The notes below the pieces were generated by a model. It searched no databases, was not told where the DNA came from, and saw only the letters and a list, made by a program, of their open reading frames with translations. Made by a program: the position numbers and the translations under genes. Source: a virus (lineage: Duplodnaviria > Heunggongvirae > Uroviricota > Caudoviricetes). Taken from it: a DNA stretch of 64,000 nt. Each line of letters opens with the position of its first letter. Position 1 is the stretch's first letter. The stretch lies in IMG/VR virus record IMGVR_UViG_2698536484_000026. One strand, 5' to 3'. Below are positions 3,188 through 62,900 of this stretch, piece by piece.

Positions 3188-3982
3188 ATGGGACAACCGG
3201 TAGACATAACAGGTAAACGTTTTGGAAAGTTGGTTGCACTTAAATATTCCGGTATTTCAAACAAACAAGGGCGACTTTGGGATTGCATCTGCGATTGCGG
3301 CAACACCTGCCTGGTTAGTTACGGGAAGCTAAATCACGGGGCGACAATATCGTGTGGCTGTGTCTACAACGCACATCGCCGTAGCGTAAAGCCTCATGGT
3401 ATGAGTAAAACGCCAATTTATCGTATATGGCTGGGTATGCGGGAACGATGTGAAAAACCAACCCATCACGCCTATAAGTGGTATGGCGGCCGAGGTATCA
3501 AAGTCTGCGAGCGGTGGCAAATATTTGAAAACTTTTATGCTGACATGGGAGAGCGACCAGAGGGGATGTCTCTTGATCGCAAAGATGTGAATGGTGACTA
3601 CGAACCTGAAAATTGCAGATGGGCGACTTTTGAAGAACAGGCCAATAACACGCGTTCAAACTTAATTTTGGAGCATAAGGGGGAAAAGCTGACTCTCTCA
3701 CAATGGGCTAAAAGAGCCGGGATTCAGACATCAACTCTTCACTATCGAATCAAGAAAGGGTGGCCATTAGATCGCGCGCTTAACGCCAGCGTCGACACGT
3801 ATGCCAACCGAGATAGTAAGCGTCTGATCGAGTGTCGCGGCAGAACTCAGCGAATTACCGAATGGGCTAGAGAGGTTGGCTTGACTGCGACCATTATCTC
3901 GCAGCGAATTTTGAGGGGGTGGGATGTTGAAGCTGCCATCTTCACACCGTCCAAACGACCAGTAAAAGGAGATAAAAAGTGA
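3188..3982 (+). CDS. HNH endonuclease (phage homing-endonuclease type)
   Basis: YRIWLGMRERC and NGDYEPENCRWATFEEQANNTR motifs typical of phage HNH endonucleases. Confidence 0.65.
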   Translation: MGQPVDITGKRFGKLVALKYSGISNKQGRLWDCICDCGNTCLVSYGKLNHGATISCGCVYNAHRRSVKPHGMSKTPIYRIWLGMRERCEKPTHHAYKWYGGRGIKVCERWQIFENFYADMGERPEGMSLDRKDVNGDYEPENCRWATFEEQANNTRSNLILEHKGEKLTLSQWAKRAGIQTSTLHYRIKKGWPLDRALNASVDTYANRDSKRLIECRGRTQRITEWAREVGLTATIISQRILRGWDVEAAIFTPSKRPVKGDKK

Positions 3983-5677: not shown

Positions 5678-6271
5678 ATGATTGCAGCCGAAAAAATCAA
5701 ACAGCGAAAGCGCGACAACTCTCTTCGTGACCTCTGGAGAACACCTGATTGGCTGTTTTCTGCCATTCAACGTTATCTTGGAGTGACATTTGATGTTGAC
5801 GTTGCCTGCAACAAGGACAACGCAAAGCTGCCTAATTTCATAGGCATTGAGCGTGATGCTTTGAAATCTGAATGGGGACAGCCAGGTACAATTGCCTTCC
5901 TCAATCCACCCTACTCCAAAATCTCCCCCTGGATTGATGCTGCTATACGTGAGCAGGCTCGCGGAGTTACAACAGTGATTCTAATTCCTCAATCCCTCGA
6001 TACAAAGTGGTATGAGCGTGCAACAGAGTATGCGAATGAGACGATTATTCTGTCTGGTGGCCGCGTAGCGTTTGTCGAGCCTGACGTCAATTTGGGTCAG
6101 GTAGAAGTAAACATCAACCCCGGTGGCAGTATGCTCGTTGTTTTTCGAGGATTCTGTCAGGACGCTGGGCACTCTATAAGCAAGATCCCTTTGGACGTCA
6201 TGAAAAGTCTGGGAGGGTATGATCCTGCGAATGTGGTCAGGAAAAAAAGACCATCAAAGAAGGCTGCTTAG
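5678..6271 (+). CDS. Phage Dam-like DNA N6-adenine methyltransferase
   Basis: DLWRTPDWLF and LNPPYS motifs. Confidence 0.7.
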   Translation: MIAAEKIKQRKRDNSLRDLWRTPDWLFSAIQRYLGVTFDVDVACNKDNAKLPNFIGIERDALKSEWGQPGTIAFLNPPYSKISPWIDAAIREQARGVTTVILIPQSLDTKWYERATEYANETIILSGGRVAFVEPDVNLGQVEVNINPGGSMLVVFRGFCQDAGHSISKIPLDVMKSLGGYDPANVVRKKRPSKKAA

Positions 6272-6292
6272 TTTGTTCTGGCGTCTGTAATT

Positions 6293-6351
6293 AGCCTGCT
6301 TCTGTATATATAAATAACTACATATTAATTATTAATATACGGAAGCAGGCT
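6293..6351. repeat. Large inverted-repeat element (copy 1 of a conserved element)
   Basis: Perfect 10-bp arms AGCCTGCTTC / GAAGCAGGCT around a 39-nt AT-rich loop containing CTGTATATATAAATAA; repeated at 37413-37461. Confidence 0.5.
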
Positions 6352-6456
6352 GTTTTGTATCAGAGACTCCAGACCTGAACATCACTACAGAATCCACTAG
6401 AACCCTTCCCAGACGCTTTAAAATCGATTTTATGAACCACTTTAAGGAAAACTAAC

Positions 6457-6687
6457 ATGCCATACCCGACCAATGTTGTTGCGCTCGTAGAGAGCGATTT
6501 TCTGGCTAAGGCTCGTGAAATGATGAAAGATCGCGAGCAGGCTTTCAACTTGTACGAATGGGCAATTAAGTGCTTGCATCTTGGGGAGCATCGCGAACTT
6601 GTTGAACAGCTTTTAGGTGAGTTGATCAACGAGGTGTTTGCCTTGAATGTTCAACTACATGGTCGAGAAAATAATCAATCGAAATGA
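6457..6687 (+). CDS. Hypothetical small protein
   Basis: ORF with RBS-like AAGGAAAA upstream. Confidence 0.35.
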   Translation: MPYPTNVVALVESDFLAKAREMMKDREQAFNLYEWAIKCLHLGEHRELVEQLLGELINEVFALNVQLHGRENNQSK

Positions 6688-8703: not shown

Positions 8704-8796
8704 CGGCTGTTAGTGCATATGCATTGACCATCTCTGCGTAAGCAATTTATGTAATTAGAAAACAACTTGTTTTGACAAATAATAAAAGGAAAACAC

Positions 8797-9381: not shown

Positions 9382-9519
9382 GACAAGGGCCAAATGGCCC
9401 TTGTGTTTCGTTGACCGAAATAGAGAGTTTGCACCTTTACGTTTAGCTTGCTCCCCTTTTATGCCACATCACAATAAAGCCAATAAGAAAACAACTTGTT
9501 TAAGCATTAGGAAAAACAC

Positions 9520-10086: not shown

Positions 10087-10227
10087 TACTGCACCAGTCG
10101 ACAGGGGGCGAAAGCCCCCATTTTTACGCCTTAAATCTGCTGTAACGCCTATGAATGCAGCTTTTATGCCTTTTCAAGTTTGCGATAATTACACCAATCA
10201 GAAAACAAATTATTTAATGGTGTAATT

Positions 10228-18483: not shown

Positions 18484-18510
18484 AGGTGGTGCATTGCACC
18501 ACCTTTTTAT
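18484..18510 (+). terminator. Rho-independent terminator
   Basis: Perfect 9-bp stem aggtggtgc/gcaccacct followed by TTTTAT. Confidence 0.55.
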
Positions 18511-19610
18511 CACACTGCGCGGAATGCGATTTCGCCAGGTATTACTTCACCTTGCCAATACATTTGGGCAGCAACGCGATCTGCGAGGTCACGATAAATA
18601 GCCGTAAATTCGCTATCTGGACGACTAATAACGGTTGGTGTTCCGTTATCCAGATCTTCACGAAGAGAGATATGAAGTGGCATTTGGCCTAACAACTGCG
18701 TGTTGTATTTCTCGGCCAGTTTCTGTGCGCCACCGGTGCCAAAAATTGGCTCGTGATGACCGCAGTTACTGCAAATATGCACACTCATGTTTTCGACGAT
18801 ACCTAGTACCGGCACTTCGACTTTTTCGAACATCACAATGCCTTTCTTCGCATCGATCAGCGCGATGTCTTGCGGCGTAGTTACCACAACCGCACCAGTT
18901 ACAGGAATGTTCTGCGCCAGCGTCAATTGAATATCACCAGTGCCCGGCGGCATATCGAGAACGAGATAGTCCAGATCAGGCCACAGTGTTTCCTGCAACA
19001 TCTGCATCAACGCCTTGCTGGCCATCGGTCCACGCCACACCATTGCATTGTCGTCGGTGACCAGATAACCAATAGAGTTGGTTGCCAGGCCATGAGACAT
19101 GATAGGTGCCATGTGAGTACCGTCCGGTGAGGTTGGACGTTGGTTTTCCGCGCCCAGCATGGTTGGAATTGATGGACCATAGATATCGGCATCCAAAATA
19201 CCAACTTTCGCACCTTCAGCAGCCAAAGCCAGTGCCAAGTTTACTGCTGTGGACGATTTGCCTACACCGCCCTTGCCTGAGCTTACGGCGATAATATTCT
19301 TAACACCATTAATGCCTGGTTGGTTTTTGACGCGCTTAAGCGTGGCAATGTTGTACGACAGCTTCCAGTCAATAGCCTTTGCGCCAGTGATACGGAGCAG
19401 ATCACCACTACATTGCTCTTTCAGGTCTTCAAAAGGCTTATTCCACACGAAAGGCATGATTAGTTCGACATGCAGTGTGTCATCCATCAACGCAACATGG
19501 TGTAACGCTTTAAGCGTAGTCAGGTTGTGTTTCAGGGTTGGGTGCTGAAAATTAGCCAGCGTACCGGCTACCATTGCTCTCAGGGCATCCGGCGATTTGG
19601 ACTCGCTCAT
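18510..19610 (-). CDS. apbC: Iron-sulfur cluster carrier ATPase ApbC/Mrp
   Basis: Near full-length match to enterobacterial Mrp: AVSSGKGGVGKSSTAVNLALALA, MPPGTGD, C-terminal CSNCGH. Confidence 0.9.
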   Translation of the reverse strand: MSESKSPDALRAMVAGTLANFQHPTLKHNLTTLKALHHVALMDDTLHVELIMPFVWNKPFEDLKEQCSGDLLRITGAKAIDWKLSYNIATLKRVKNQPGINGVKNIIAVSSGKGGVGKSSTAVNLALALAAEGAKVGILDADIYGPSIPTMLGAENQRPTSPDGTHMAPIMSHGLATNSIGYLVTDDNAMVWRGPMASKALMQMLQETLWPDLDYLVLDMPPGTGDIQLTLAQNIPVTGAVVVTTPQDIALIDAKKGIVMFEKVEVPVLGIVENMSVHICSNCGHHEPIFGTGGAQKLAEKYNTQLLGQMPLHISLREDLDNGTPTVISRPDSEFTAIYRDLADRVAAQMYWQGEVIPGEIAFRAV

Positions 19611-19767
19611 CCCGTCTCCTTTATTTTAATTTGCGCAATTGTCGCCTTGTAGTGTACTCCAGCTGCGACATTTAATCATTTATGAGAAATGCTGTTATCA
19701 CATGGCAGACATAAGGCCATTTTGTTACTATCAAGCCCCTTTTCACTACAAAGAAGTAATGCCTACT

Positions 19768-21801
19768 ATGACCCAAGTCGCGAAGAAAATTCTGGTGACG
19801 TGCGCGCTGCCGTACGCTAACGGCTCAATCCACCTCGGCCATATGCTGGAGCACATCCAGGCTGATGTCTGGGTTCGTTACCAGCGAATGCGCGGCCACG
19901 AGGTTAATTTCATCTGTGCCGACGATGCCCACGGTACGCCGATCATGCTGAAAGCACAGCAACTTGGTATCACACCGGAGCAGATGATTGGCGAAATGAG
20001 TCAGGAACACCAGACTGATTTCGCAGGCTTTAACATCAGCTATGACAACTATCACTCGACGCACAGCGAAGAGAACCGTCAGTTGTCTGAGCTTATCTAT
20101 ACTCGCCTGAAAGAGAACGGTTTTATTAAAAATCGCACTATCTCTCAGTTGTACGACCCGGAAAAAGGCATGTTCCTGCCGGATCGTTTTGTGAAAGGCA
20201 CCTGCCCGAAATGTAAAGCGCCAGATCAATACGGCGATAACTGTGAAGTTTGCGGCGCGACCTACAGCCCGACTGAACTGATCGAGCCGAAATCGGTGGT
20301 TTCTGGTGCTACCCCGGTAATGCGTGATTCTGAACACTTCTTCTTTGATCTGCCCTCTTTCAGCGAAATGTTGCAGGCATGGACCCGCAGCGGTGCGTTG
20401 CAGGAGCAGGTGGCAAACAAAATGCAGGAGTGGTTTGAATCTGGTCTGCAACAGTGGGATATCTCCCGCGACGCACCTTACTTCGGTTTTGAAATTCCGA
20501 ACGCGCCGGGTAAATATTTCTACGTCTGGCTGGACGCACCGATTGGCTACATGGGTTCCTTCAAGAATCTGTGCGACAAGCGCGGCGACACTACCAGCTT
20601 CGATGAATACTGGAAGAAAGACTCCACCGCCGAGCTGTACCACTTCATCGGTAAAGATATCGTTTACTTCCACAGCCTGTTCTGGCCTGCCATGCTGGAA
20701 GGCAGCAACTTCCGCAAGCCGACCAACCTGTTTGTTCACGGCTATGTGACGGTGAACGGCGCGAAGATGTCCAAGTCTCGCGGCACCTTTATTAAAGCCA
20801 GCACCTGGTTGAATCATTTTGACGCTGACAGCCTGCGTTACTACTACACTGCGAAACTCTCTTCGCGCATTGATGATATCGATCTCAACCTGGAGGATTT
20901 CGTTCAGCGTGTGAATGCCGATATCGTGAACAAAGTGGTTAACCTGGCGTCCCGTAACGCTGGCTTTATCAATAAGCGTTTTGACGGTGTGCTGGCAAGC
21001 GAGCTGGCTGACCCGCAGTTGTACAAAACCTTCACTGATGCCGCTGAAGTGATTGGTGAAGCGTGGGAAAGCCGCGAATTTGGTAAAGCTATCCGTGAAA
21101 TCATGGCACTGGCTGACCTGGCTAACCGCTATGTCGACGAGCAGGCTCCTTGGGTAGTCGCAAAACAGGAAGGTCGCGATGCTGACCTGCAGGCGATTTG
21201 CTCAATGGGCATCAACCTGTTCCGCGTGCTGATGACTTACCTGAAACCGGTACTGCCGAAACTGACAGAACGTGCGGAAGCATTCCTGAATACGGAACTG
21301 ACCTGGGATGGCATCCAGCAACCGCTGCTGGGCCATAAAGTGAATCCGTTCAAAGCACTGTATAACCGTATCGACATGAAACAGGTGGAAGCACTGGTGG
21401 AAGCGTCTAAAGAAGAAGTGAAAGCTACTGCCGCGCCAGTTACTGGCCCGCTGGCAGACGACCCGATTCAGGAAACCATCACCTTTGACGACTTTGCCAA
21501 AGTTGACCTGCGCGTGGCACTGATCGAAAACGCAGAGTTTGTTGAAGGTTCTGACAAACTGCTGCGCCTGACGCTGGATCTCGGCGGTGAAAAACGCAAT
21601 GTCTTCTCAGGCATCCGTTCTGCTTATCCAGACCCACAGGCACTGATTGGTCGTCACACCATTATGGTGGCTAACCTGGCTCCGCGTAAGATGCGCTTCG
21701 GCATCTCCGAAGGTATGGTGATGGCTGCTGGCCCCGGCGGGAAAGATATCTTCCTGTTAAGCCCGGATGCTGGTGCTAAACCTGGCCACCAGGTTAAGTA
21801 A
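19768..21801 (+). CDS. metG: Methionine--tRNA ligase
   Basis: [26 protein letters not shown] (HIGH), KMSKS, CPKC...C zinc knuckles, C-terminal tRNA-binding domain; 677 aa from ATG 19768. Confidence 0.95.
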
Positions 21802-21820
21802 TTAAGCAACCTCTGTTCGC

Positions 21821-21850
21821 AATGCCCGGCAACACGCTGGGCATTTTCAT
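21821..21850 (+). terminator. Terminator-like hairpin after metG
   Basis: atgccc...gggcat stem followed by TTTT. Confidence 0.5.
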
Positions 21851-21962
21851 ATAGACACAATCCCTCCTGATTTACACAAGCCCTAAAACAATTTGTTTTC
21901 TACCTTTTGTTGATTGAGATAATAAGCCGCATAAGAAAACAAATTGTTTCGGAGTGGTTGAA

Positions 21963-22262
21963 ATGTTGAACATTACCCAAGCCTACCAGGTGGCATTGAT
22001 CAGTTCATCTCATACATCAGAGGAAGATGCTCGCCGATTCATGATCGCAAGCAATGAGCTGGATTGGGTTTCACAAATTGATGGCGGTTGTATTGTCCAC
22101 GCCGGGTTACAGGATGATGTCTGGAAAGACGACTTGCGTCGATATGGTATATCCGAAGGCGCGATTGCTAACATTCAGAAAGTACTTGATGTAGGCTTTG
22201 ACTCTGTACATTTTGATTGTGGTGCGCCGATCGTTGAAGGGCTTGAGTGCTGGTGTTGGTAG
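21963..22262 (+). CDS. Hypothetical protein
   Basis: Preceded by conserved promoter-like element and AAGAAAACAAATTGTTT motif. Confidence 0.4.
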   Translation: MLNITQAYQVALISSSHTSEEDARRFMIASNELDWVSQIDGGCIVHAGLQDDVWKDDLRRYGISEGAIANIQKVLDVGFDSVHFDCGAPIVEGLECWCW

Positions 22263-22393
22263 AGTGTATAAGCGGATCAATGAGTTACGGAAACAGTTAA
22301 TAATGAGGAGCTTGTAATAAGCTGTATACCCTAGAAAAGCTAGACTAGGGAATAAAATGACGTGAAACTGGGCGAGACAGTAAATAATTCCGA

Positions 22394-23623
22394 ATGATAA
22401 TTGAACAAATAACCCCTTGCTCGGAGCTTGGAATGACTGATACCGCTTTTTCAAAATCGTTACAAAAAGAAGTCGATCCTGAGCAGTACTTGGCGCTAAA
22501 GAATTTAGATGACAGCTCGGTTCATGCTATTGCCCGTGACGATATCATCTGCCCCATTTGCAAAGTTGGAGGTGGTTCGTTCGTTAGAGCCACAAGGAAT
22601 GGTGGCTATCACAAGAAGGCGCATTTCAGATTTACCGGTGAAGATGGTCAAGGCCATCATCCATCATGTGATTTCTATGGAGATAGACTAACATCTGAGG
22701 TGAAGCAGCACCTTGTCTCATTCACAAAAGATCGAACAAAGTATTCGCAGGTAATACGAAAGCTGGTCTGTGCCGGCATACAGGAAGGGATATTTACTCA
22801 AGAAAAAATGTGGCAGATGAGGGAATGGTTCTTCAATAAGCGAAAGGATTCCACATTTGAAATATGGTTAGAAAGCGAGCATTTAGACTGGCTTTATTAT
22901 ATTAGTGGGTTACGTGATGCATATCTAGCATGGACAACTCCTGATATTCTACCTTTCGCGCCCATTCAGGTTACTGTGCCTGGTTTTTCTTGGAAGCGTG
23001 CGATTGACAAAGAGGTGCTAAGAGTTCACATCAAGACTCTCCAGCAATTGCGTGAAATTTCAGTCTCACATAGAGACATTGCTGTAATCTTAGAACACAT
23101 AAACAATAATCGTGACCGCACAATTCTCGATCCATCGCATTTGGAGGACGAGATAAGTAAGACCTATAAGCTTACTAGTTTTGTGATGGGCAATTACATT
23201 GAGTTTCAGACAAAAACGGTTAGCGACAGAGCATACGGGGAAGCTAAGTTTCTGGCATTTGCAGCACTTTTGTTGTTCGTGTCAGATTGGGACCTCAACA
23301 TTGCTATTGGTAAGTTTTCTAAGATTGCCAGAGTGAAGGAGGTTGATGACATGCTGGCTGGTAATTTCATTGGTCTTAATCCTTACTTCCGATACGACCT
23401 GGCTAATGCAGTGAAGAGATTGCAGGATAACTGGCCGATTGAATACCAAGAGTTGGAGCATTGGAATGTTGAGAAATCCATGCGTGACGCATATGAAAAG
23501 TGGCGTGCGACAGAGCCTGAATTCGCTCCACCCCTATTGCCAGACTTGTATATTGCCAAACATGAGAAAGAAGTCGCACAAGACGAGCAAGTCAGGCAGT
23601 GGATTAAGAACGGGGATGTTTGA
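22394..23623 (+). CDS. Hypothetical 409-aa protein with CPICK...HHPSC zinc-ribbon-like motif
   Basis: Long ORF with AT-rich upstream region; no recognised family. Confidence 0.45.
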   Translation: MIIEQITPCSELGMTDTAFSKSLQKEVDPEQYLALKNLDDSSVHAIARDDIICPICKVGGGSFVRATRNGGYHKKAHFRFTGEDGQGHHPSCDFYGDRLTSEVKQHLVSFTKDRTKYSQVIRKLVCAGIQEGIFTQEKMWQMREWFFNKRKDSTFEIWLESEHLDWLYYISGLRDAYLAWTTPDILPFAPIQVTVPGFSWKRAIDKEVLRVHIKTLQQLREISVSHRDIAVILEHINNNRDRTILDPSHLEDEISKTYKLTSFVMGNYIEFQTKTVSDRAYGEAKFLAFAALLLFVSDWDLNIAIGKFSKIARVKEVDDMLAGNFIGLNPYFRYDLANAVKRLQDNWPIEYQELEHWNVEKSMRDAYEKWRATEPEFAPPLLPDLYIAKHEKEVAQDEQVRQWIKNGDV

Positions 23624-24689
23624 GTGTAATTAGCTTAATCAATCAGTTGATAATGGCGGTCACAATTTGATTCTTTTCTATAAGAATCCGTTGATCGCCA
23701 CTACTCTTCTTCCATACCTGCAATCACACCTTTAAATATCAATAGGTTAGCGTTGTTTATACCAATAAGAAAACAACTAAATAACAGATCAACGAAACGT
23801 CAACGCTTTCACCCGATTTGGTCTAAAAAATTGACGTTTTCACACATCACTGCTTATACCCGTAACTCTACGCAGCAGACAGCGCCACAGAGTCCAATTT
23901 TCACCACAGACGACTCAACACACTACCAACAAAAACACACGCTCAAAATCGCTCCCGCTGCGTTACACAACCATATAAACAACATATTTTCAGGTATAAC
24001 AAAACAACTAAATAACACATATGCCATTCCCCAAAACAACCAACCTCTTTATGGCAGGCTACCGAAAAGACCCACCTCTTCTCCCCAGGCTACTGGACAA
24101 CCAACCTAACTTTCACAGGCAATCCGAAAACATTCATACGCGCGATACCCACGACACGCCATTCCCCAAACAGCGAAGAAACACCAGAATCACTGAAACC
24201 CCAACGAAGCCTGTAACCGCAAGGATTCTCTCAATCCCAAAAGACTCGAAGCATAACAATCACGGGAAACGCCATTACCCAATACACGAATAACTACAAA
24301 AGCCTTTCACACACTCCAGACAAACAACTCAAACACAATAACGAAAGGAATCGCCCACCTGCCATTACTCCATACACGGAGAAGAACAATCACCAAAACG
24401 ACGAGAACACCCCATAGAAGAACCACCGCAAAACGAACGAAACCACATACACCGACAGAGAAAACAACACACCCAATTCACCAACAGAAATAGTCGCCGT
24501 ATAGAACATTCTGGAAGGAGTGAGCATTAACGCCTATAGAGAGGTTGAGACAGATAAAACACAACATGTATAGCGAAGAAGCCAGGTATGTATAAGTGGG
24601 GAGGGAAGGAGGGGTGTCGCCTCCTTTTTCGTATTTATTCAACTCCTGATTTTATCCCCCCGTAACACCCCTACGGTCAGCCTTCGGTC

Positions 24690-24835
24690 CATACAGGGAA
24701 AAGGCTGCATCCCGCTACAGAAACGGCTGGGTTGCCTTCGGGGAACGGCTGGAGGTTTTCAGGGAAACGGTCGAGTTGCCTGTGTGGATTTCGGGAAAAG
24801 GCTCGATGCCGGTTCAGGAACGGTGGCGTACCGGT
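24690..24835. repeat. Iteron-like direct repeat array A (GGGAAACGGCTG-type units)
   Basis: Six degenerate copies of GG(G)AA(A)(A/C)GG(C/T)NG at about 24696, 24720, 24741, 24761, 24792, 24816. Confidence 0.45.
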
Positions 24836-25185
24836 ATAGCGAGAGGGAGAGTTGCGGCTACCCACCTGTAATGTGCGGGAAGAAGAGAGGCGCTCACGTA
24901 GGCGGACTTGCTTACCGCTGGATTCCCTCTGAATGCCCAGCTACAGCGTAATTGTGCCAGACAGCCAACGGGTCACAATCGATTTCAGTAGGTTTTCGGG
25001 GAGAGGATTATTCTGCCCACCAGCCACCTTCGGCCACTAAATCAGAATAATGTAAAAAGTATACTCGGTACTGAACCTGAAAACTCACTGCCAAAACCAT
25101 ATTCACCGGAATAAAATCCTTTTTCGCCTGTGCGTTATTGCGATAATAACACCATCAAGAAAACATGTTGTTTAAGGATTGCTTT

Positions 25186-25515
25186 ATGTTTGCAAATATC
25201 GACATCAACCAAATCAAGAAATTAACTCAAAAAGAGTTTGATCAGTTTTATGAGTTAGAAGGTTGGTCTTCCACTCTGATCAATTCAAGATGGGTGCTGG
25301 AACTGATGACTCGTGATGACGCACCTGCTTTGATAATTTGCGACATGGGTGAAGATGCTGACTTTATGGATATGAGCGAATTTTGTGTGGACACATACAA
25401 CCGCAGCCAGAAGTACTACTTCACATGCGATAGCGAAAATGACGTGATTTCTAAGGTCTATCTTCACCTCGTCCAGCATTGGGACGTTCAGGAGTTTCTT
25501 GAAGTATTCGAGTAA
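25186..25515 (+). CDS. Hypothetical protein
   Basis: Preceded by CAAGAAAACATGTTGTTTAAGG motif; terminator hairpin follows. Confidence 0.4.
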   Translation: MFANIDINQIKKLTQKEFDQFYELEGWSSTLINSRWVLELMTRDDAPALIICDMGEDADFMDMSEFCVDTYNRSQKYYFTCDSENDVISKVYLHLVQHWDVQEFLEVFE

Positions 25516-26994: not shown

Positions 26995-27344
26995 ATATGG
27001 GCGATTTCAAGAAACGCCTGAAGGAAAGAGCCGAGATGGTCAGAAAGCAAAACGCCTCTTCTGTCATCAGATACGCAAGGCAGTTTAGTCGCAACAACAA
27101 ATCAGTTGAGGAAAAGATCCTTAGCGTAATCGTGCGATAATTATTAAGGCCATCAGCATTGGTGGCCTTAAATGACCATCTTGTTTCCCGCAGGCTAAAA
27201 ACACCAACCTCTTACCTCCAGGCAACCGACAAACCCACCTGTTCCCGTCCGGCTACCGCAACTTTCCACTTTGACGCCTTATTCGTACAACGATAATTAA
27301 CACCAACAAGAAAACAATTTGTTATTTACGATAAGGAATTAATC

Positions 27345-27827
27345 ATGAATTTTATCGCTACTGTAAACGCACCCGCACATGGCAATATCGCTGTAACGTT
27401 CTCTGACATTGAAAAACGAGTACTTGGTGCATGGCGCGACAATGAGACGGTAGAACTGTCAGCACAAGAAAAATGCATTATTGCACGCGACATCATTGGC
27501 AATCGTCGTTACTCGCGGGTATTTGAGAAAGCGTATGTGGTAAATTCTGGATTCGGAACGTTCGTCTTTCCGGTGCGCTCCGGGCGATTCTGCCAGTCCA
27601 AGCTGATTGAGTTCGCTACGCAGATTTCTGTCTGGATTAAAACTCAATCGTCGTTCAAATTTTCCGACGATGAAGCAGTATCGCAGGGGATGCGGATCGC
27701 CAACAATGCAATTAAATGCAAAAACATTACGTATACCGCTGGCGTTGATACATGGAAACTGTTTTGCGCTAACTTTATGCTGAATGTATACGCAAGCAAC
27801 CGCATCCACATCCTTGATGGCGTGTAA
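27345..27827 (+). CDS. Hypothetical protein
   Basis: Preceded by CAAGAAAACAATTTGTT motif; hairpin 27830-27858 follows. Confidence 0.4.
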   Translation: MNFIATVNAPAHGNIAVTFSDIEKRVLGAWRDNETVELSAQEKCIIARDIIGNRRYSRVFEKAYVVNSGFGTFVFPVRSGRFCQSKLIEFATQISVWIKTQSSFKFSDDEAVSQGMRIANNAIKCKNITYTAGVDTWKLFCANFMLNVYASNRIHILDGV

Positions 27828-27869: not shown

Positions 27870-28040
27870 GCTGCCGCAGGGAAATTTTCAGAAGCGGCGA
27901 GGAACGTATTCATGAGCCGACGGGGAACGGCCAGGATTTTTTCGGGAAACGGCTGCATTTGCCTTTGTGTAGAAAAAAACATCGGGAAGCTGGTGGAATC
28001 CAACCAGCGGTTGTCGGACAGGTGAGCGGGGAAAATTATG
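27870..28040. repeat. Iteron-like direct repeat array B (GGGAAACGGC-type units)
   Basis: Six degenerate copies (cagggaaatttt, gaggaacg, cggggaacggccagg, cgggaaacggctgcat, cgggaagctgg, cggggaaaatt). Confidence 0.4.
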
Positions 28041-28434
28041 ATGACTTTCGTCACCTGAGACATCCAGATTTCTTTCGTAGCATAATCACATACGTGATTA
28101 AGTGGTGTGATTATGTGAAAAATCACGCGCACATAATACGCGAGCGGATACGGAACAAAACAAAATGCCGATCCGCGCCGACAAATAAACGCGGATCATA
28201 AAGCAAGACTAAAAGCCAATGATTAACTATGCGCTATAACGCGTTTTAAGCGCGTTAATGTGTTAAGTAATGGGTATGTACTGGCAAGGATATAAAAGCG
28301 CGTCTATGGCGTTATTTTGGCGCTTATTTTTATGTTGTTGGAGTGAGTTAAAGACAATAAAAAACGCGCCATCAATGGCGCGTTATTGTGGAAGTATTGG
28401 AAACGAAAAAAGCGCCCATAGTGGGCGCTCGATT

Positions 28435-29882: not shown

Positions 29883-30407
29883 TTAAAATGGAAGGATTCG
29901 TTCAACCCAATCGAAGAAAACAAGTATTTTTCTGCCGTCTTCTAACTTAAGAGTGACCTGGCAAGCATCAACGCCTCTTGACACCCCTTCAATTTCACGA
30001 CCGTCTGCCATGTAGACCCTTATAGATTGGTCGTTTTGATAAGCCTTGCGACATATCGCAAAAAAGTCACGGCGTGATGGCTGATTGTCAACATAGTCTG
30101 GATGTATTGTTAGCCTACCTTTGAACTCGCGAGCAATGCCATCGATTACACCTGATTCAATTGTGCTAATGCGCTCAAGTGGGAGTCTTATACGATTTTC
30201 TTTATCATATGGAAGCGGGCATAAATCTAGCTTATTGCGGGAAGGCATTGTCCCCTGAACGTACATGCAAAACACCTGACCGTCTTCAAGCGTGACTCTT
30301 ACAGGAATGTTGTTCTTCCGCCAGAACATAAGTATGTTTTCAGCATGTTCGTAGTCTCGCGGCCAGACTTCAGCCGGTATGCCGTAGGTGATGTCCGATG
30401 TTCTCAT
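29883..30407 (-). CDS. Hypothetical protein (last gene of three-gene AT-rich operon)
   Basis: Start overlaps stop of upstream gene by 4 nt. Confidence 0.45.
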   Translation of the reverse strand: MRTSDITYGIPAEVWPRDYEHAENILMFWRKNNIPVRVTLEDGQVFCMYVQGTMPSRNKLDLCPLPYDKENRIRLPLERISTIESGVIDGIAREFKGRLTIHPDYVDNQPSRRDFFAICRKAYQNDQSIRVYMADGREIEGVSRGVDACQVTLKLEDGRKILVFFDWVERILPF

Positions 30408-59951: not shown

Positions 59952-62900
59952 ATGTGGTACAGGGAAGGTACTATCACATTTACACAGGGCAGCAATACTC
60001 TGGTTGGGGCAGGGACAGCCTGGAACGTAACAGCTAATGGTGTGTTGCCGGGGATGATCGTCATTGGCCCCGACAATAAGCTGTATGAGATCAAGCGCGT
60101 AACCAGTGATACGAACATTGTTCTCTCAGAACCTTATACCGGCGAAACTCAGTCTGAAGTTCCGTGCCGAATCATTACGACCTATGAAGGCGACTTAACA
60201 CAGTTTAGCGCGCGCTTTACTGCACTAATGTCGCGTATGTCGGCTGATTCCAAGTCCATGCGCAGTTGGTTGACTGCTCTGGATGAGGTGACAATCGAGC
60301 GTGAAGACGGTACAGAAGTGACCGTTAAGCCGCTAATGCAGATCGTCAACGAGCACAACGAAAACGTTGAGTGGTATAAAAATAACACTGACGCGATTGA
60401 TGCTGCTGGCGACAAAGCTCGTGAGGCGGCGGCCAGTGCTGCCGCAGCAGCAGAAAGCGCCAATACCGCTGGAGAAAAAGCCTCTCAAGCGTCTCAAAGT
60501 GCATCCGCTGCGGCATCCTCACAAAGTGCTGCAAGTGCGAGCGCAACTGCTGCGAAAAAATCTGAAACGAACGCACAAGCCGCAAAAGAAGCGGCAGCAG
60601 AATCAGCATCTGTAGCGTCGGCCAAAGCATCGGAGGCAGCAACATCTGCGTCCAGTGCCTCTGCATCTAAGGATGCAGCCAAAGCATCAGAGACTAACGC
60701 TTCATCGAGCGCAAACGCGGCAGCATCATCGGCAACAGAAGCTGCAAATTCGTCTAAGGCAGCAAAAACGTCAGAGGCAAACGCAAAAGCATCTGAAACG
60801 GCAGCCGAACAGAGTGCATCGTCTGCAAACAGTTCGAAATCTGCGGCAGAAGCGTCAGCAAGCGCAGCCTCAGCAAGTGCGGATAGTGCTTCATCAAGTG
60901 CAACAGCGGCAGGAAAATCTGCGGATAGCGCATTGTCATCAGCGACAACAGCTACCACAAAAGCGACAGAGGCGACGAGTCAGGCTACAGCTGCTAAAAA
61001 TTCAGCATCGGCAGCAAAAACCTCTGAAACAAATGCAAAGACTTCAGAAGACAATGCTGCTTCCTCTAAGGCGGCAGCTGCTGAATCTGCAAGTTCTGCG
61101 TCTGCATCAGCCTCCTCAGCATCCGCTTCAAAAGATGAGGCGACCAAGCAGGCATCAGAAGCGAAGGGCAGTGCTTCAACGGCATCCACGAAAGCAACAG
61201 AGGCGGCAGGCAGTGCGACGGCTGCATCTCAGAGCAAAACTGCTGCTGAATCCGCTGCGACCCGTGCGGAAGCTGCTGCTGATCGTGCTGAAGAGATTGC
61301 CGGTGCAGTTGCGATGGAAGACGCAAGCCTTACAACTAAAGGTGTTGTGAAACTTAGCAGTGCTGTCGATAGCACCAGTGAATCGCTGGCCGCAACGCCA
61401 AAAGCAGTTAAAGCAGCCAATGACAATGCGAATAGCAGGGTGCCATCTAACCGAAAAATTAACGGAAAAGCACTGACTGCGGATATAACATTAACGCCGA
61501 AAGATATTGGTACTTTAAATTCAGTAACGATGTCTTTCTCTGGCGGGGCTGGGTGGTTCAAACTGGCTACGGTTACCATGCCACAAGCGAGTTCCATCGT
61601 TTACATCACATTGATTGGTGGTGCTGGATATAATGTTAACTCCCCTATGCAGGCTGGTATATCTGAACTTGTTCTTCGTGCGGGAAATGGAAATCCAAAA
61701 GGTCTTACTGGTGCGTTATGGCGAAGGACATCGGTTGGATTTACTAATTTTGCATGGGTGAATACATCCGGCGATACATATGATATTTATGTTGAGATTG
61801 GCAATTATGCGACGAGTGTAAATGTCCACTGGGATTGTACTGCAAATGCGTCAGTTTCTATTTATACATCGCCAACATATTCAGCGAGTAAGCCTGCCAG
61901 CGTTACCGATGGTGTTGTTTATACGATGTATAGCTCACATCAGAAACCTACGCCATCAGATATTGGAGCACTGCCAACAACCGGAGGAACAGTTTCTGGT
62001 CCGTTGTCTGTTACAGGCGGATTAACTGGTTCATTGAATGGTAATGCAAGTACAGCAACGAAATTACAGACGACAAGAACTATCGGTGGAGTTGGTTTCG
62101 ACGGTTCTGCCAATATTAATCTTCCAGGTGTAAACACTACGGGTAATCAGAACACCACTGGTAATGCCGCAACTGCTACAAAACTACAGACGGCAAGAAC
62201 TATCGGCGGCGTGAGCTTTGATGGTACTGCAAATATTAATTTGCCAGGTGTTAATACGACTGGTAATCAGAATACAACAGGTAATGCGGCTACTGCTACG
62301 AAGTTGCAGACTGCGCGTACTATCAATGGGGTGTCGTTTGACGGCTCGGCAAATATTTCCTTGTCGCCAGCAAATATAGGTTGCCCGGCATCTCCTACTG
62401 GTTGGTTAACTACAGGAAGTAATGGCGGAGCAATAACAACAGCCCAGTTAGTGACGTTATTGCAAAATAATGGAGCCTTTAACACAAAGGCATGGATTGC
62501 TCGATGTGCGTGGGCCTATGCCAATAGCGCAACCATACCAAATAGTGAAACTGGTTGTGGCGTTATTCCATTGGCAGGAGCTGTTATAGAAGTATTTAAT
62601 AACGGTAGTAGTTCAAATAATTATACGATCCGCATAACAACGGCCACAACGACAAGTGTTTCCGGTGCTCTCACTAATGCGGAGTTTATCTATGTATTTA
62701 ATGGCACAGATTATTCTCCAGGATGGCGAAGAGTATATAACACGAAAAACAAACCAACTGCATCTGACGTTGGTGCATTACCTCTTACCGGTGGTACATT
62801 ATCTGGAGGTTTGACATCTTCTGGTGAGATCGTTTCAAAATATGCAAATGGTTTCCGCATTGCTTACGGTAGCTTTGGGTTCTTTATCCGTAATGACGGC

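Follow-up and report, generated by a model that had tools for sequence, protein, structure and literature searches.

The closest described counterparts of the locus considered here, a conserved element of ~1 kb (23647 to ~24640) enclosing a CA-rich, G/T-poor stretch in a Caudoviricetes genome (IMGVR_UViG_2698536484_000026; "the window" below is the whole analysed stretch of 64,000 nucleotides), are the Rho-dependent terminators and their Rho utilization (rut) sites, the "C>G bubbles" exemplified by rutA-rutB of lambda tR1. Descriptors of such terminators include C>G skew, low structure and the frequencies of YC, CA, AAC, ACA and CAC, the last four being among the most differentiating (PMC6144790). 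Rho also silences prophage genes, and the 3′ ends of the transcripts that it terminates are heavily processed (PMC12360218). The element resembles these terminators in its untranslated, unstructured, C-rich and G-poor sense transcript with high YC, CA, ACA and CAC, in an upstream stem-loop possibly marking a processed 3′ end, in a steep in vivo drop of RNA without an intrinsic terminator and in its setting in horizontally mobile DNA, where Rho silencing is common. It differs from them in being ~9 times as long as the minimal 78-nt rut and conserved in sequence as well as composition, in possessing three direct-repeat families and a promoter-like block, and in showing no enrichment of regularly spaced YC chains.

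Protein-sponge RNAs such as CsrB/CsrC and CrcZ likewise carry several copies of a short motif over weakly structured RNA; the motifs of the element, however, are neither GGA nor AANAANAA, their copies lie 90–140 nt apart rather than tightly packed, and the element is silent in the lysogen. The RNA-based immunity leaders, namely the P4 PLE leader with its CI RNA and seqA/seqC, the N15 CA RNA and P1/P7 c4, have in common with it that a long leader of a phage-plasmid stays untranslated and contains direct repeats, with premature termination proposed as the point of control. Unlike in those systems, we found here no small stable stem-loop RNA complementary to the repeats, no Rfam match at E <= 10 and no significant internal or long-range antisense pairing, and no antirepressor gene is adjacent. 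Transcript-primed origins (ColE1 RNA II, T4 oriF/oriG) also set an untranslated transcript beside repeat arrays, in a replicon encoding RNase HI and parts of the replisome, whereas the RNA of the element would be C-rich rather than G-rich and its core lacks a low-stability unwinding element. Finally, iteron arrays (P1 incA/incC, lambda ori, P4 ori/crr) display phased direct repeats at two loci a few kb apart, as is the case here; however, the phased arrays take up only a small fraction of the element, the gene for the plasmid initiator lies far off without these motifs nearby, and iterons leave the 800-nt strand skew unexplained.

We favor, with a probability of roughly 40%, the interpretation that the element is a long Rho-loading insulator/attenuator at the junction of cargo and backbone genes, carrying putative regulator-binding repeats. 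If so, it would be an unusually long, sequence-conserved and modular form of a known type of signal. Searches of the literature on the origins, transcriptomes and non-coding RNA of SSU5/pHCM2 turned up no account of it.

A non-coding element conserved in sequence and composition

The region is 95–96% identical to Cyrano and PhiR41_1, both phages of Escherichia, with a more distant relationship to Salmonella phage SSU5; the window is thus a phage-plasmid of the SSU5/pHCM2 type. An earlier note made from its sequence alone had described 23750-24500 as strand-asymmetric, CA-rich and G-poor; a run of base-composition skew bears this out and makes it the most skewed part of both the window and the whole ~109-kb replicon. 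The A+C fraction of 0.71–0.72 is the maximum of the window, compared with 0.498 ± 0.030 for all its 750-nt windows (z ~7.3). The further description of the stretch as "almost entirely C and A" captured this strong excess but overstated it, as G and T make up 28% of the bases (A 39.5%, C 31.7%, G 12.6%, T 16.1%). Over 23700-24500 the GC skew ranges from -0.36 to -0.54 and the AT skew from +0.13 to +0.65, and the skew as a whole extends from ~23680 to 24495. In the complete plasmid NZ_CP031136, which is 98% identical and served as the reference for the layout of the ~109-kb replicon, 400-nt windows with A+C > 0.62 or < 0.38 are found at this locus only. The iteron array that the note had placed just downstream of the stretch was also recovered, as a G-rich array at 24696-24830.

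The CA-rich stretch is non-coding on both strands. Searches of the two predicted + strand open reading frames (ORFs; Table 1) against Pfam and PHROG yielded no match at E <= 0.01, whereas 8/8 of the neighboring proteins scanned match PHROGs. Each ORF is interrupted by stops or frameshifts in 10/11 diverse relatives, and the frames that are open within the element differ between lineages. Column variability by phase is 0.150/0.161/0.167 across the element, that is, without a 3-nt periodicity, as against 0.17/0.13/0.35 and 0.21/0.14/0.36 in two neighboring genes used as controls. The pN/pS ratio of the element is 0.81–1.02 in all six frames (0.86–0.99 for the three + strand frames of 23900-24300), compared with 0.31 and 0.45 for the true frames of the control genes. 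The PGAP annotation of NZ_CP031136 leaves 23623-25207 without any call, and no annotated feature lies beneath the element match in the 25 listed of the 243 matching complete E. coli genomes. The claim of the earlier note that there are no credible ORFs is hence upheld by family searches, broken frames, phase variability, pN/pS and PGAP alike. The note had suggested comparing related genomes for skew rather than reading frames: the skew persists in them, and the frames are broken in 10/11 relatives.

In light of this, it is scarcely credible that the stretch codes for protein, be it one rich in T/P/Q/N read from the + strand or a small hydrophobic V/L/F/W peptide read from the − strand. Gene callers do place ORFs in it in some records (CYRAN_103, XSB42477, SSU5_108), and nearly all relatives keep one minus-strand frame (...VVLVVLVIVLLRVWSNGR...) open, with nearby indels of 12 nt; however, the six-frame pN/pS values, the lack of codon periodicity, the shifting of frames among lineages and the silence of PGAP all speak against coding, and composition alone explains the rarity of stop codons on both strands. 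A type I toxin-like reading of the minus-strand hydrophobic ORF was rejected, as its pN/pS is ~0.9–1.0 and its periodicity inconsistent; it is a product of GT-rich sequence. The hypothetical proteins annotated inside the element in deposited phages are SSU5_108 (on the GT-rich strand), CYRAN_103 and XSB42477, with in-element annotations at the record-local coordinates 3489-3728 (−) in L003, 6107-6463 (+) in L001 and 6079-6465 (+) in L002. Given that stop codons are rare on both strands, these three are very likely false gene calls, and CYRAN_103, SSU5_108 and the PhiR41_1 ORFs can be flagged as recurrent instances of such calls in deposited genomes.

The element is nevertheless widespread and constrained. 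It is present on 839 PLSDB plasmids from at least 10 genera (Klebsiella, Escherichia, Enterobacter, Salmonella, Citrobacter, Cronobacter and others) and in 243/5426 complete E. coli genomes (4.5%), being plasmid-borne in every case. The homology between lineages starts exactly at TTGAYAWTGGCGGTCAC (23647), with the genes upstream varying by lineage. Its mean column variability of 0.16 is lower than that of the neighboring genes, and 300/879 columns are invariant among 12 diverse sequences that are only 56–78% identical overall. The variable columns retain the bias (A 0.31, C 0.35, G 0.17, T 0.17), whereas the adjoining downstream non-coding DNA is of balanced composition. For Cronobacter-type elements the BLAST alignment covers only ~100 nt, and yet the following 700 nt are still 62–70% A+C; by comparison, where unrelated phages match the same seed by chance, A+C is mostly 46–58%, with three such matches reaching up to 0.62. 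Across lineages C (0.29–0.33) and T (0.16–0.19) are the steadiest fractions, while A and G trade off. Together, these observations show that both the sequence and the composition of the element are under purifying selection.

This conservation makes it very improbable that the element is a compositional relic without present function, such as a decayed array of duplicated promoter/operator modules. The resemblance of 23757-23778 to other early promoter regions (9480-9496, 10189-10208 and 27302-27317) and of 24039-24081 to 27203-27244 would fit such an origin, but the element is better conserved than its flanking genes and spread over the plasmids enumerated above, and its skew and motif spacing are maintained across lineages past alignability. 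The related idea that the 3′ half is a pseudogene, derived from a paralogue of the 160-aa gene that follows a second repeat array (see below), was discarded for want of tblastn similarity; the DNA similarity between the two is confined to boxes, iterons and operator.

Copies also occur outside the SSU5-like replicons. The 5′ half of the element with a CA-rich continuation is found in large non-phage Klebsiella plasmids (NZ_CP050844, 223 kb; L080/L081, match at 15001-15453 of L081), where in NZ_CP050844 it lies in DNA rich in insertion sequences, adjoining a DUF262 protein and a type I restriction-modification system; this copy is probably a relic brought along with phage-plasmid cargo. Near-identical copies in assemblies labelled as unrelated phyla, namely a metagenome-assembled genome labelled Bacillota (L014) and a 604-nt contig labelled Catenulispora (L017), most likely reflect contamination or mis-binning.

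Proposed Rho loading and the possibility of a trans-acting RNA

The + strand is the sense strand for all genes flanking the element in the window, and its predicted RNA is at or near the least structured there, with a minimum free energy of -11 to -22 kcal/mol per 200 nt as against -52 ± 9.8 for the window. An RNAalifold consensus of 18 diverse copies contains 81 pairs in ~1100 nt with a covariation term of -1.3; no structure emerged from these copies beyond two terminal hairpins and a few short helices, and the covariation is negligible. The C/G ratio exceeds 1.5 in every 78-nt window over 23816-24522 (707 nt; the next longest such run is 208 nt) and exceeds 2 in 568/773 windows of 78 nt. NTG triplets are depleted 9-fold (5 versus 43.9 ± 8.3 expected), and a search of the + strand for pairs of a Shine-Dalgarno sequence and a start codon found none before 24600. 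The YC count of 110 is the highest of the window (76 ± 12), and the composition is also rich in CA and ACA. As computed, the locus displays three features of a rut region, namely uninterrupted C>G over at least ~78 nt of the non-template strand in an RNA that is both unstructured and untranslated. Rfam 15 covariance models run on both strands of 23400-25300 gave 0 matches at E <= 10, and a tRNA/tmRNA scan found nothing. The proposal of an ncRNA in the earlier note accordingly survives insofar as the locus is compatible with an untranslated transcript or leader; the absence of an Rfam match, the near-absence of conserved structure and the silence in lysogen RNA-seq count against it.

Expression in the plasmid state could be gauged from a reanalysis of the LF82 transcriptome (PMC9928086 S1 Table), in which LF82 lysogens carry the 96%-identical phage Cyrano and values are given as log2(FPKM+5), FPKM being fragments per kilobase per million. 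CYRAN_102, which ends 4 nt before the element, has values of 6.0/5.64 in LB and up to 9.21, whereas CYRAN_103 inside the stretch has 2.32/2.32 in LB, equivalent to 0 FPKM, and a maximum of 4.27 over ten samples (PMC9928086). In terms of FPKM, this translates to 45–590 for the upstream gene and 0–14 for the stretch, with 0–5 in 9/10 samples, and the downstream gene CYRAN_105 reaches 7.8 on the logarithmic scale (PMC9928086). In the plasmid state the element thus lies silent between two active units, with expression from CYRAN_102 and CYRAN_105 and little or none from CYRAN_103. A search for terminator-like sites from CYRAN_102 to the 3′ hairpin found none; transcription, or RNA survival, therefore stops at the left edge of the element in the lysogen without an intrinsic terminator.

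These features can be accommodated by a single model. Ribosomes could not initiate on the + strand RNA, with almost no NTG and no Shine-Dalgarno sequence, and the RNA could not fold, its A and C being left unpaired; the resulting ~700 nt of naked RNA, rich in C and poor in G, would be a preferred loading substrate of Rho. As such RNA suits Rho, transcription entering from the cargo gene or from the internal promoter-like block would end inside the element and would not get to the iteron array and the lytic early genes. The left block begins 4–28 nt 3′ of the stop codon of whichever + strand cargo gene precedes it; its fold has a free energy of -19.3 kcal/mol (z -4.9), and the sequence of its inner stem changes with the pairing kept in four lineages, including the SSU5, Klebsiella and Cronobacter types. 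Trimming of the unstructured tail by exonucleases may then leave this hairpin as a stable 3′ end of the cargo mRNA, and a hairpin followed by a naked C-rich tail fits the extensive 3′-end processing of Rho-terminated RNAs. The 31-nt boxes, the GCCATTAC motifs and the half-operators (Table 1) would be putative binding sites for phage regulators that tune the element. A Rho insulator would account for the strand specificity, the bias in the variable columns, the missing starts and structure, the position at the junction and the drop in RNA-seq. We infer Rho involvement, activity of the internal promoter and binding partners for the repeats.

Several points weigh against a Rho-loading insulator. 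Chains of six or more YC dimers at regular spacing, [(YC)N9-13]6, show no enrichment, with 2 starts (79th percentile). A rut needs only ~80 nt and no fixed sequence, so that Rho loading alone leaves the 0.8-kb length, the conservation and the fixed motif offsets unexplained. One would not expect a conserved promoter-like block within an insulator, except where the RNA downstream of it serves a purpose itself. The element is also retained in the Klebsiella lineage, where the gene upstream lies on the opposite strand. Moreover, the RNA-seq is of low depth, its strandedness is not established and the drop could equally be rapid decay.

Some of these features would also fit an RNA that acts in trans, an alternative that we regard as unlikely though not far-fetched. 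Here, induction would activate the promoter-like block inside the element (−35 at 23831-23836, −10 at 23855-23860) to give a lytic-phase long non-coding RNA, a structure-free transcript of ~0.75 kb ending at the 24603-24629 hairpin, whose repeats or C-rich body would titrate an RNA-binding factor; this could be a phage or host protein or Rho itself, in which last case genome-wide antitermination would ensue. In a more specific version, which we consider quite improbable, the element would be a "naked RNA" gene whose induced, C-rich and untranslatable ~0.75-kb product is a trans decoy for Rho or another host factor binding single-stranded RNA, achieving antitermination without a protein antiterminator. 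The word "decoy" is absent from a 2025 review of Rho regulation.

The promoter-like hexamers are conserved in the E. coli, SSU5, Klebsiella, Cronobacter and L104 lineages with a spacer of fixed length and variable sequence, a combination that is the signature of a predicted promoter and, being seen in five lineages, favors a trans-acting RNA. So do the delimitation of the element as a discrete unit, with the promoter-like block at its start and a conserved hairpin at its end, the four to six GCCATTAC motifs in the same orientation at conserved offsets, the sequence conservation beyond the needs of a rut site, the status of the transcript as the least structured RNA of the window, and the lysogen silence, which is consistent with a product made on induction only. 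Measured from the AAGAAAACAA anchor, the GCCATTAC offsets are 255/390/503/593 in E. coli, 268/412/548/641 in Klebsiella and 272/410/521/620 in Cronobacter. On the other side, no such transcript has been observed, and the −10 lacks its final T, on account of which a consensus promoter scan does not call the block 23794-23860. Neither the Hfq-type (ARN)n nor the CrcZ-type AANAANAA motif is enriched beyond composition, and GGA motifs are rare; relative to dinucleotide shuffles the z-scores are -0.1 for ARN, +0.2 for AAN and -0.4 for GGA. We therefore rejected a sponge RNA for Hfq/Crc or CsrA. An antisense regulator was similarly set aside, with no significant complementarity to the rest of the window; the lack of long antisense complementarity and of an Rfam family also counts against a trans-acting RNA more generally. 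Furthermore, 31-nt boxes recur at 27190-27256 between a terminator and a promoter, which points to binding at the level of DNA.

Repeat arrays, replication and packaging

The modules of the element are collected in Table 1. The segment 23765-23860 is its deepest-conserved part and is separated from the left block by a variable pyrimidine-rich spacer. The first copy of the 25-nt motif is invariant in 18 sequences and has a 17/17 match to the promoter region of gene 9520; the CCAATAAG that precedes it is also present at other early promoters. One relative (L018) has four copies of the 31-nt box. The hairpin at 24603-24629 is terminator-like in this window, and most relatives keep the hairpin with a weak T-run. 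Two readings of the GGCGGTCAC block were rejected on comparison by eye only, namely an RfaH ops site, of which positions 7-8 differ, and a sigma-54 promoter, for which the −24/−12 spacing is off by 2.

Table 1. Features of the conserved element and its immediate surroundings (window coordinates).
Feature	Position	Strand	Remarks
Left boundary block	23647-23700	+	TTGAYAWTGGCGGTCAC...TTTCTATAAGA...GTTGATCGCC; nearly invariant across genera
Two-tier hairpin in left block	outer stem 23654-23662/23692-23700, inner stem 23669-23675/23682-23688	+	loop contains TATAAG (23679-23684)
CA-rich, G/T-poor stretch	23680-24495	+	defined by composition
ORF, 118 aa	23753-24109	+	spurious; equals the CYRAN_103 annotation in phage Cyrano; start codon not conserved among relatives
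25-nt motif ATAAGAAAACAAMTAAATAACA, copy 1	23765-23789	+	direct repeat; left half of the early-gene operator GAAAACAAnTTGTTTTC; preceded by CCAATAAG
Promoter-like block	23794-23860	+	inverted repeat GAAACGTCAA (23794-23803) / TTGACGTTT (23831-23839)
−35-like TTGACG	23831-23836	+	within promoter-like block
−10-like (T)TATACC	23854-23860	+	17/18-nt spacer after the −35-like hexamer
Degenerate palindromic operator	23977-24020	+	perfect AAACAAnTTGTTT in relatives; then 25-nt motif copy 2 (23996-24020)
ORF, 90 aa	24021-24293	+	spurious
Four YRCCATTMC copies (GCCATTAC...ACACGGAGAAGAAC, ~29 nt)	starts 24022, 24157, 24270, 24360 (24022-24389)	+	one orientation
Three tandem 31-nt boxes, ACCMACCTCTT-N5-CAGGCTAC	24031-24122	+	CAGGCWA cores at 24055, 24086, 24116; spacing 31 and 30 nt
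Two 31-nt A/G/C repeats (AGAAGAAC...AAAACGA...GAAMCAC)	24380-24446	+	direct repeat, 36 nt apart; indels of 12 nt in relatives
Right boundary	24589-24640	+	invariant GTATAAGTGGG, purine-rich block, hairpin 24603-24629, then T-run
G-rich iteron array A (GGGAAAMGGCTG; GGGAAAMGGCT, ~22-nt phase)	24696-24830	+	context, outside the element

Both the boxes and the G-rich iterons have counterparts downstream. The second box array at 27190-27256 (CCMACCTNTT-N5-CAGGCWAC) has a terminator hairpin on one side and, on the other, the TTGACG-17-TAATTA promoter of the gene at 27345-27827, which encodes a protein of 160 aa without a family match; the array is laid out like upstream activator sites. A second G-rich iteron array (GGGAAACGGCTG, ~22-nt phase) is found at 27880-27965, 3.2 kb from array A, with five small early genes between the two; the paired arrays may constitute a lytic origin or control locus.

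An extension of this idea to the element itself, which strikes us as distinctly unlikely, would make it a DNA-level element of lytic replication or copy control: an initiator or handcuffing protein would recognize its repeats along with the G-iteron arrays A and B, and the tract of strand asymmetry would serve as a zone of transcript priming, with an R-loop processed by phage RNase HI, or of helicase loading on a hairpin-free displaced strand. Consistent with this are the three direct-repeat families, one of them with exact helical phasing (31/30 nt) and variation in copy number, and the recurrence of both boxes and G-iterons ~3.2 kb downstream, which recalls two-part origins such as P4 ori/crr. 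Additionally, the phage-plasmid encodes an RNase HI, a DnaB-like helicase, a primase, a ligase and a 5′-3′ exonuclease, and the lytic origin of the SSU5/pHCM2 family is without annotation.

Several points count against such a role. Segments of 100 bp in the core have nearest-neighbor free energies of -132 to -140, the mean being -136.7 ± 7.0 (35th–77th percentile), and weak duplex is found only at the edges (23600-23800 and 24500-24600); an average duplex stability implies that the core is not an unwinding element. No DnaA box is present in 23600-25300. The RepB-family plasmid initiator gene lies at 104.9-106.1 kb of NZ_CP031136, ~29 kb around the circle from the element, and neither the 31-nt boxes nor the G-iterons occur near it. 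Binding sites in double-stranded DNA need no strand skew in the variable columns. By the established rules, C-rich RNA disfavors stable R-loops, and since rightward transcription gives precisely such an RNA, stable R-loops would be disfavored here; inspection by eye only revealed no convincing leftward promoter. The origin-associated unwinding region put forward in the earlier note accordingly finds no backing in duplex stability, DnaA boxes or the position of the initiator gene, which is ~29 kb away and lacks the iteron motif.

The packaging-related role that the note had also raised fared no better. That the element is a pac or cos recognition region is extremely improbable: direct repeats are the sole point in favor, pac sites are normally in or beside terS, and the genes for the small and large terminase subunits are at ~37.6-39.5 kb, 13 kb away. 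Known pac sites, to our knowledge, do not display strand skew.

Genomic setting and biological significance

In NZ_CP031136, genes of nucleotide metabolism and small early genes form a long run on the + strand; after it come a leftward regulator/helicase operon and then ParB-like, terminase and structural genes. The element lies exactly at the transition from the variable cargo region to the conserved block of small early genes. Its upstream neighbor in the window is a cargo segment (18510-23623) encoding an apbC/Mrp-like ATPase, a full methionyl-tRNA synthetase, a DUF5983 protein and a 409-aa protein (phrog_12525). As this segment varies among lineages and the conserved backbone restarts exactly at 23647, it looks like a hotspot of cargo insertion.

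The dispersed palindrome GAAAACAAnTTGTTTTC, half of which recurs in the element, lies 10–30 nt 5′ of the start codons of many + strand early genes, usually right after a GATAAT-like −10, with sites in the window at 8758, 9487, 10201, 13109, 21884, 21935, 25159, 25643, 26546, 27310, 37497 and 37522. At <=3 mismatches it has 36 matches, compared with 13.4 ± 3.9 in shuffles, and the family looks like the operator of a genome-wide repressor, akin to the P1 C1 sites, or a hairpin of the 5′ untranslated region. A potential regulator is the full-length FljA-type protein encoded at 29883-30407 (−; Pfam Flag1_repress, E 5e-81), which shows a weak Hfq/Sm-like match at residues 123-165 and for which relatives carry the annotation of a repressor or transcriptional regulator. 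Since FljA represses flagellin mRNA post-transcriptionally, the phage-plasmid could have in this protein a regulator that binds RNA.

The segment 28000-28900, which separates the leftward regulator operon from the rightward early genes, is AT-rich and dense in hairpins; it is a candidate divergent control region with several GC-clamped hairpins (e.g., AAAAACGCGCCATCAATGGCGCGTT), small leftward ORFs and a DnaA-box-like TTTTTCACA at 28114-28122 (−). Further away, in the distal tail-gene region, a 120-nt tandem repeat at 62040-62357 (2.3–2.5 copies, 76–78% matches) is probably inside a tail-fiber gene, judging from the comparison with NZ_CP031136.

The cargo that these phage-plasmids carry at this junction includes defense systems and resistance genes, and the replicons are common in Enterobacteriaceae. 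A fail-safe Rho insulator, if this is what the element is, would account for the expression of arbitrary cargo in the lysogen while the lytic genes next to it stay off, and it would be a compact part usable as an insulator. If it instead proves to be a trans-acting decoy RNA or a lytic origin, it would fill a gap in our understanding of a widespread and little-studied family of phage-plasmids.

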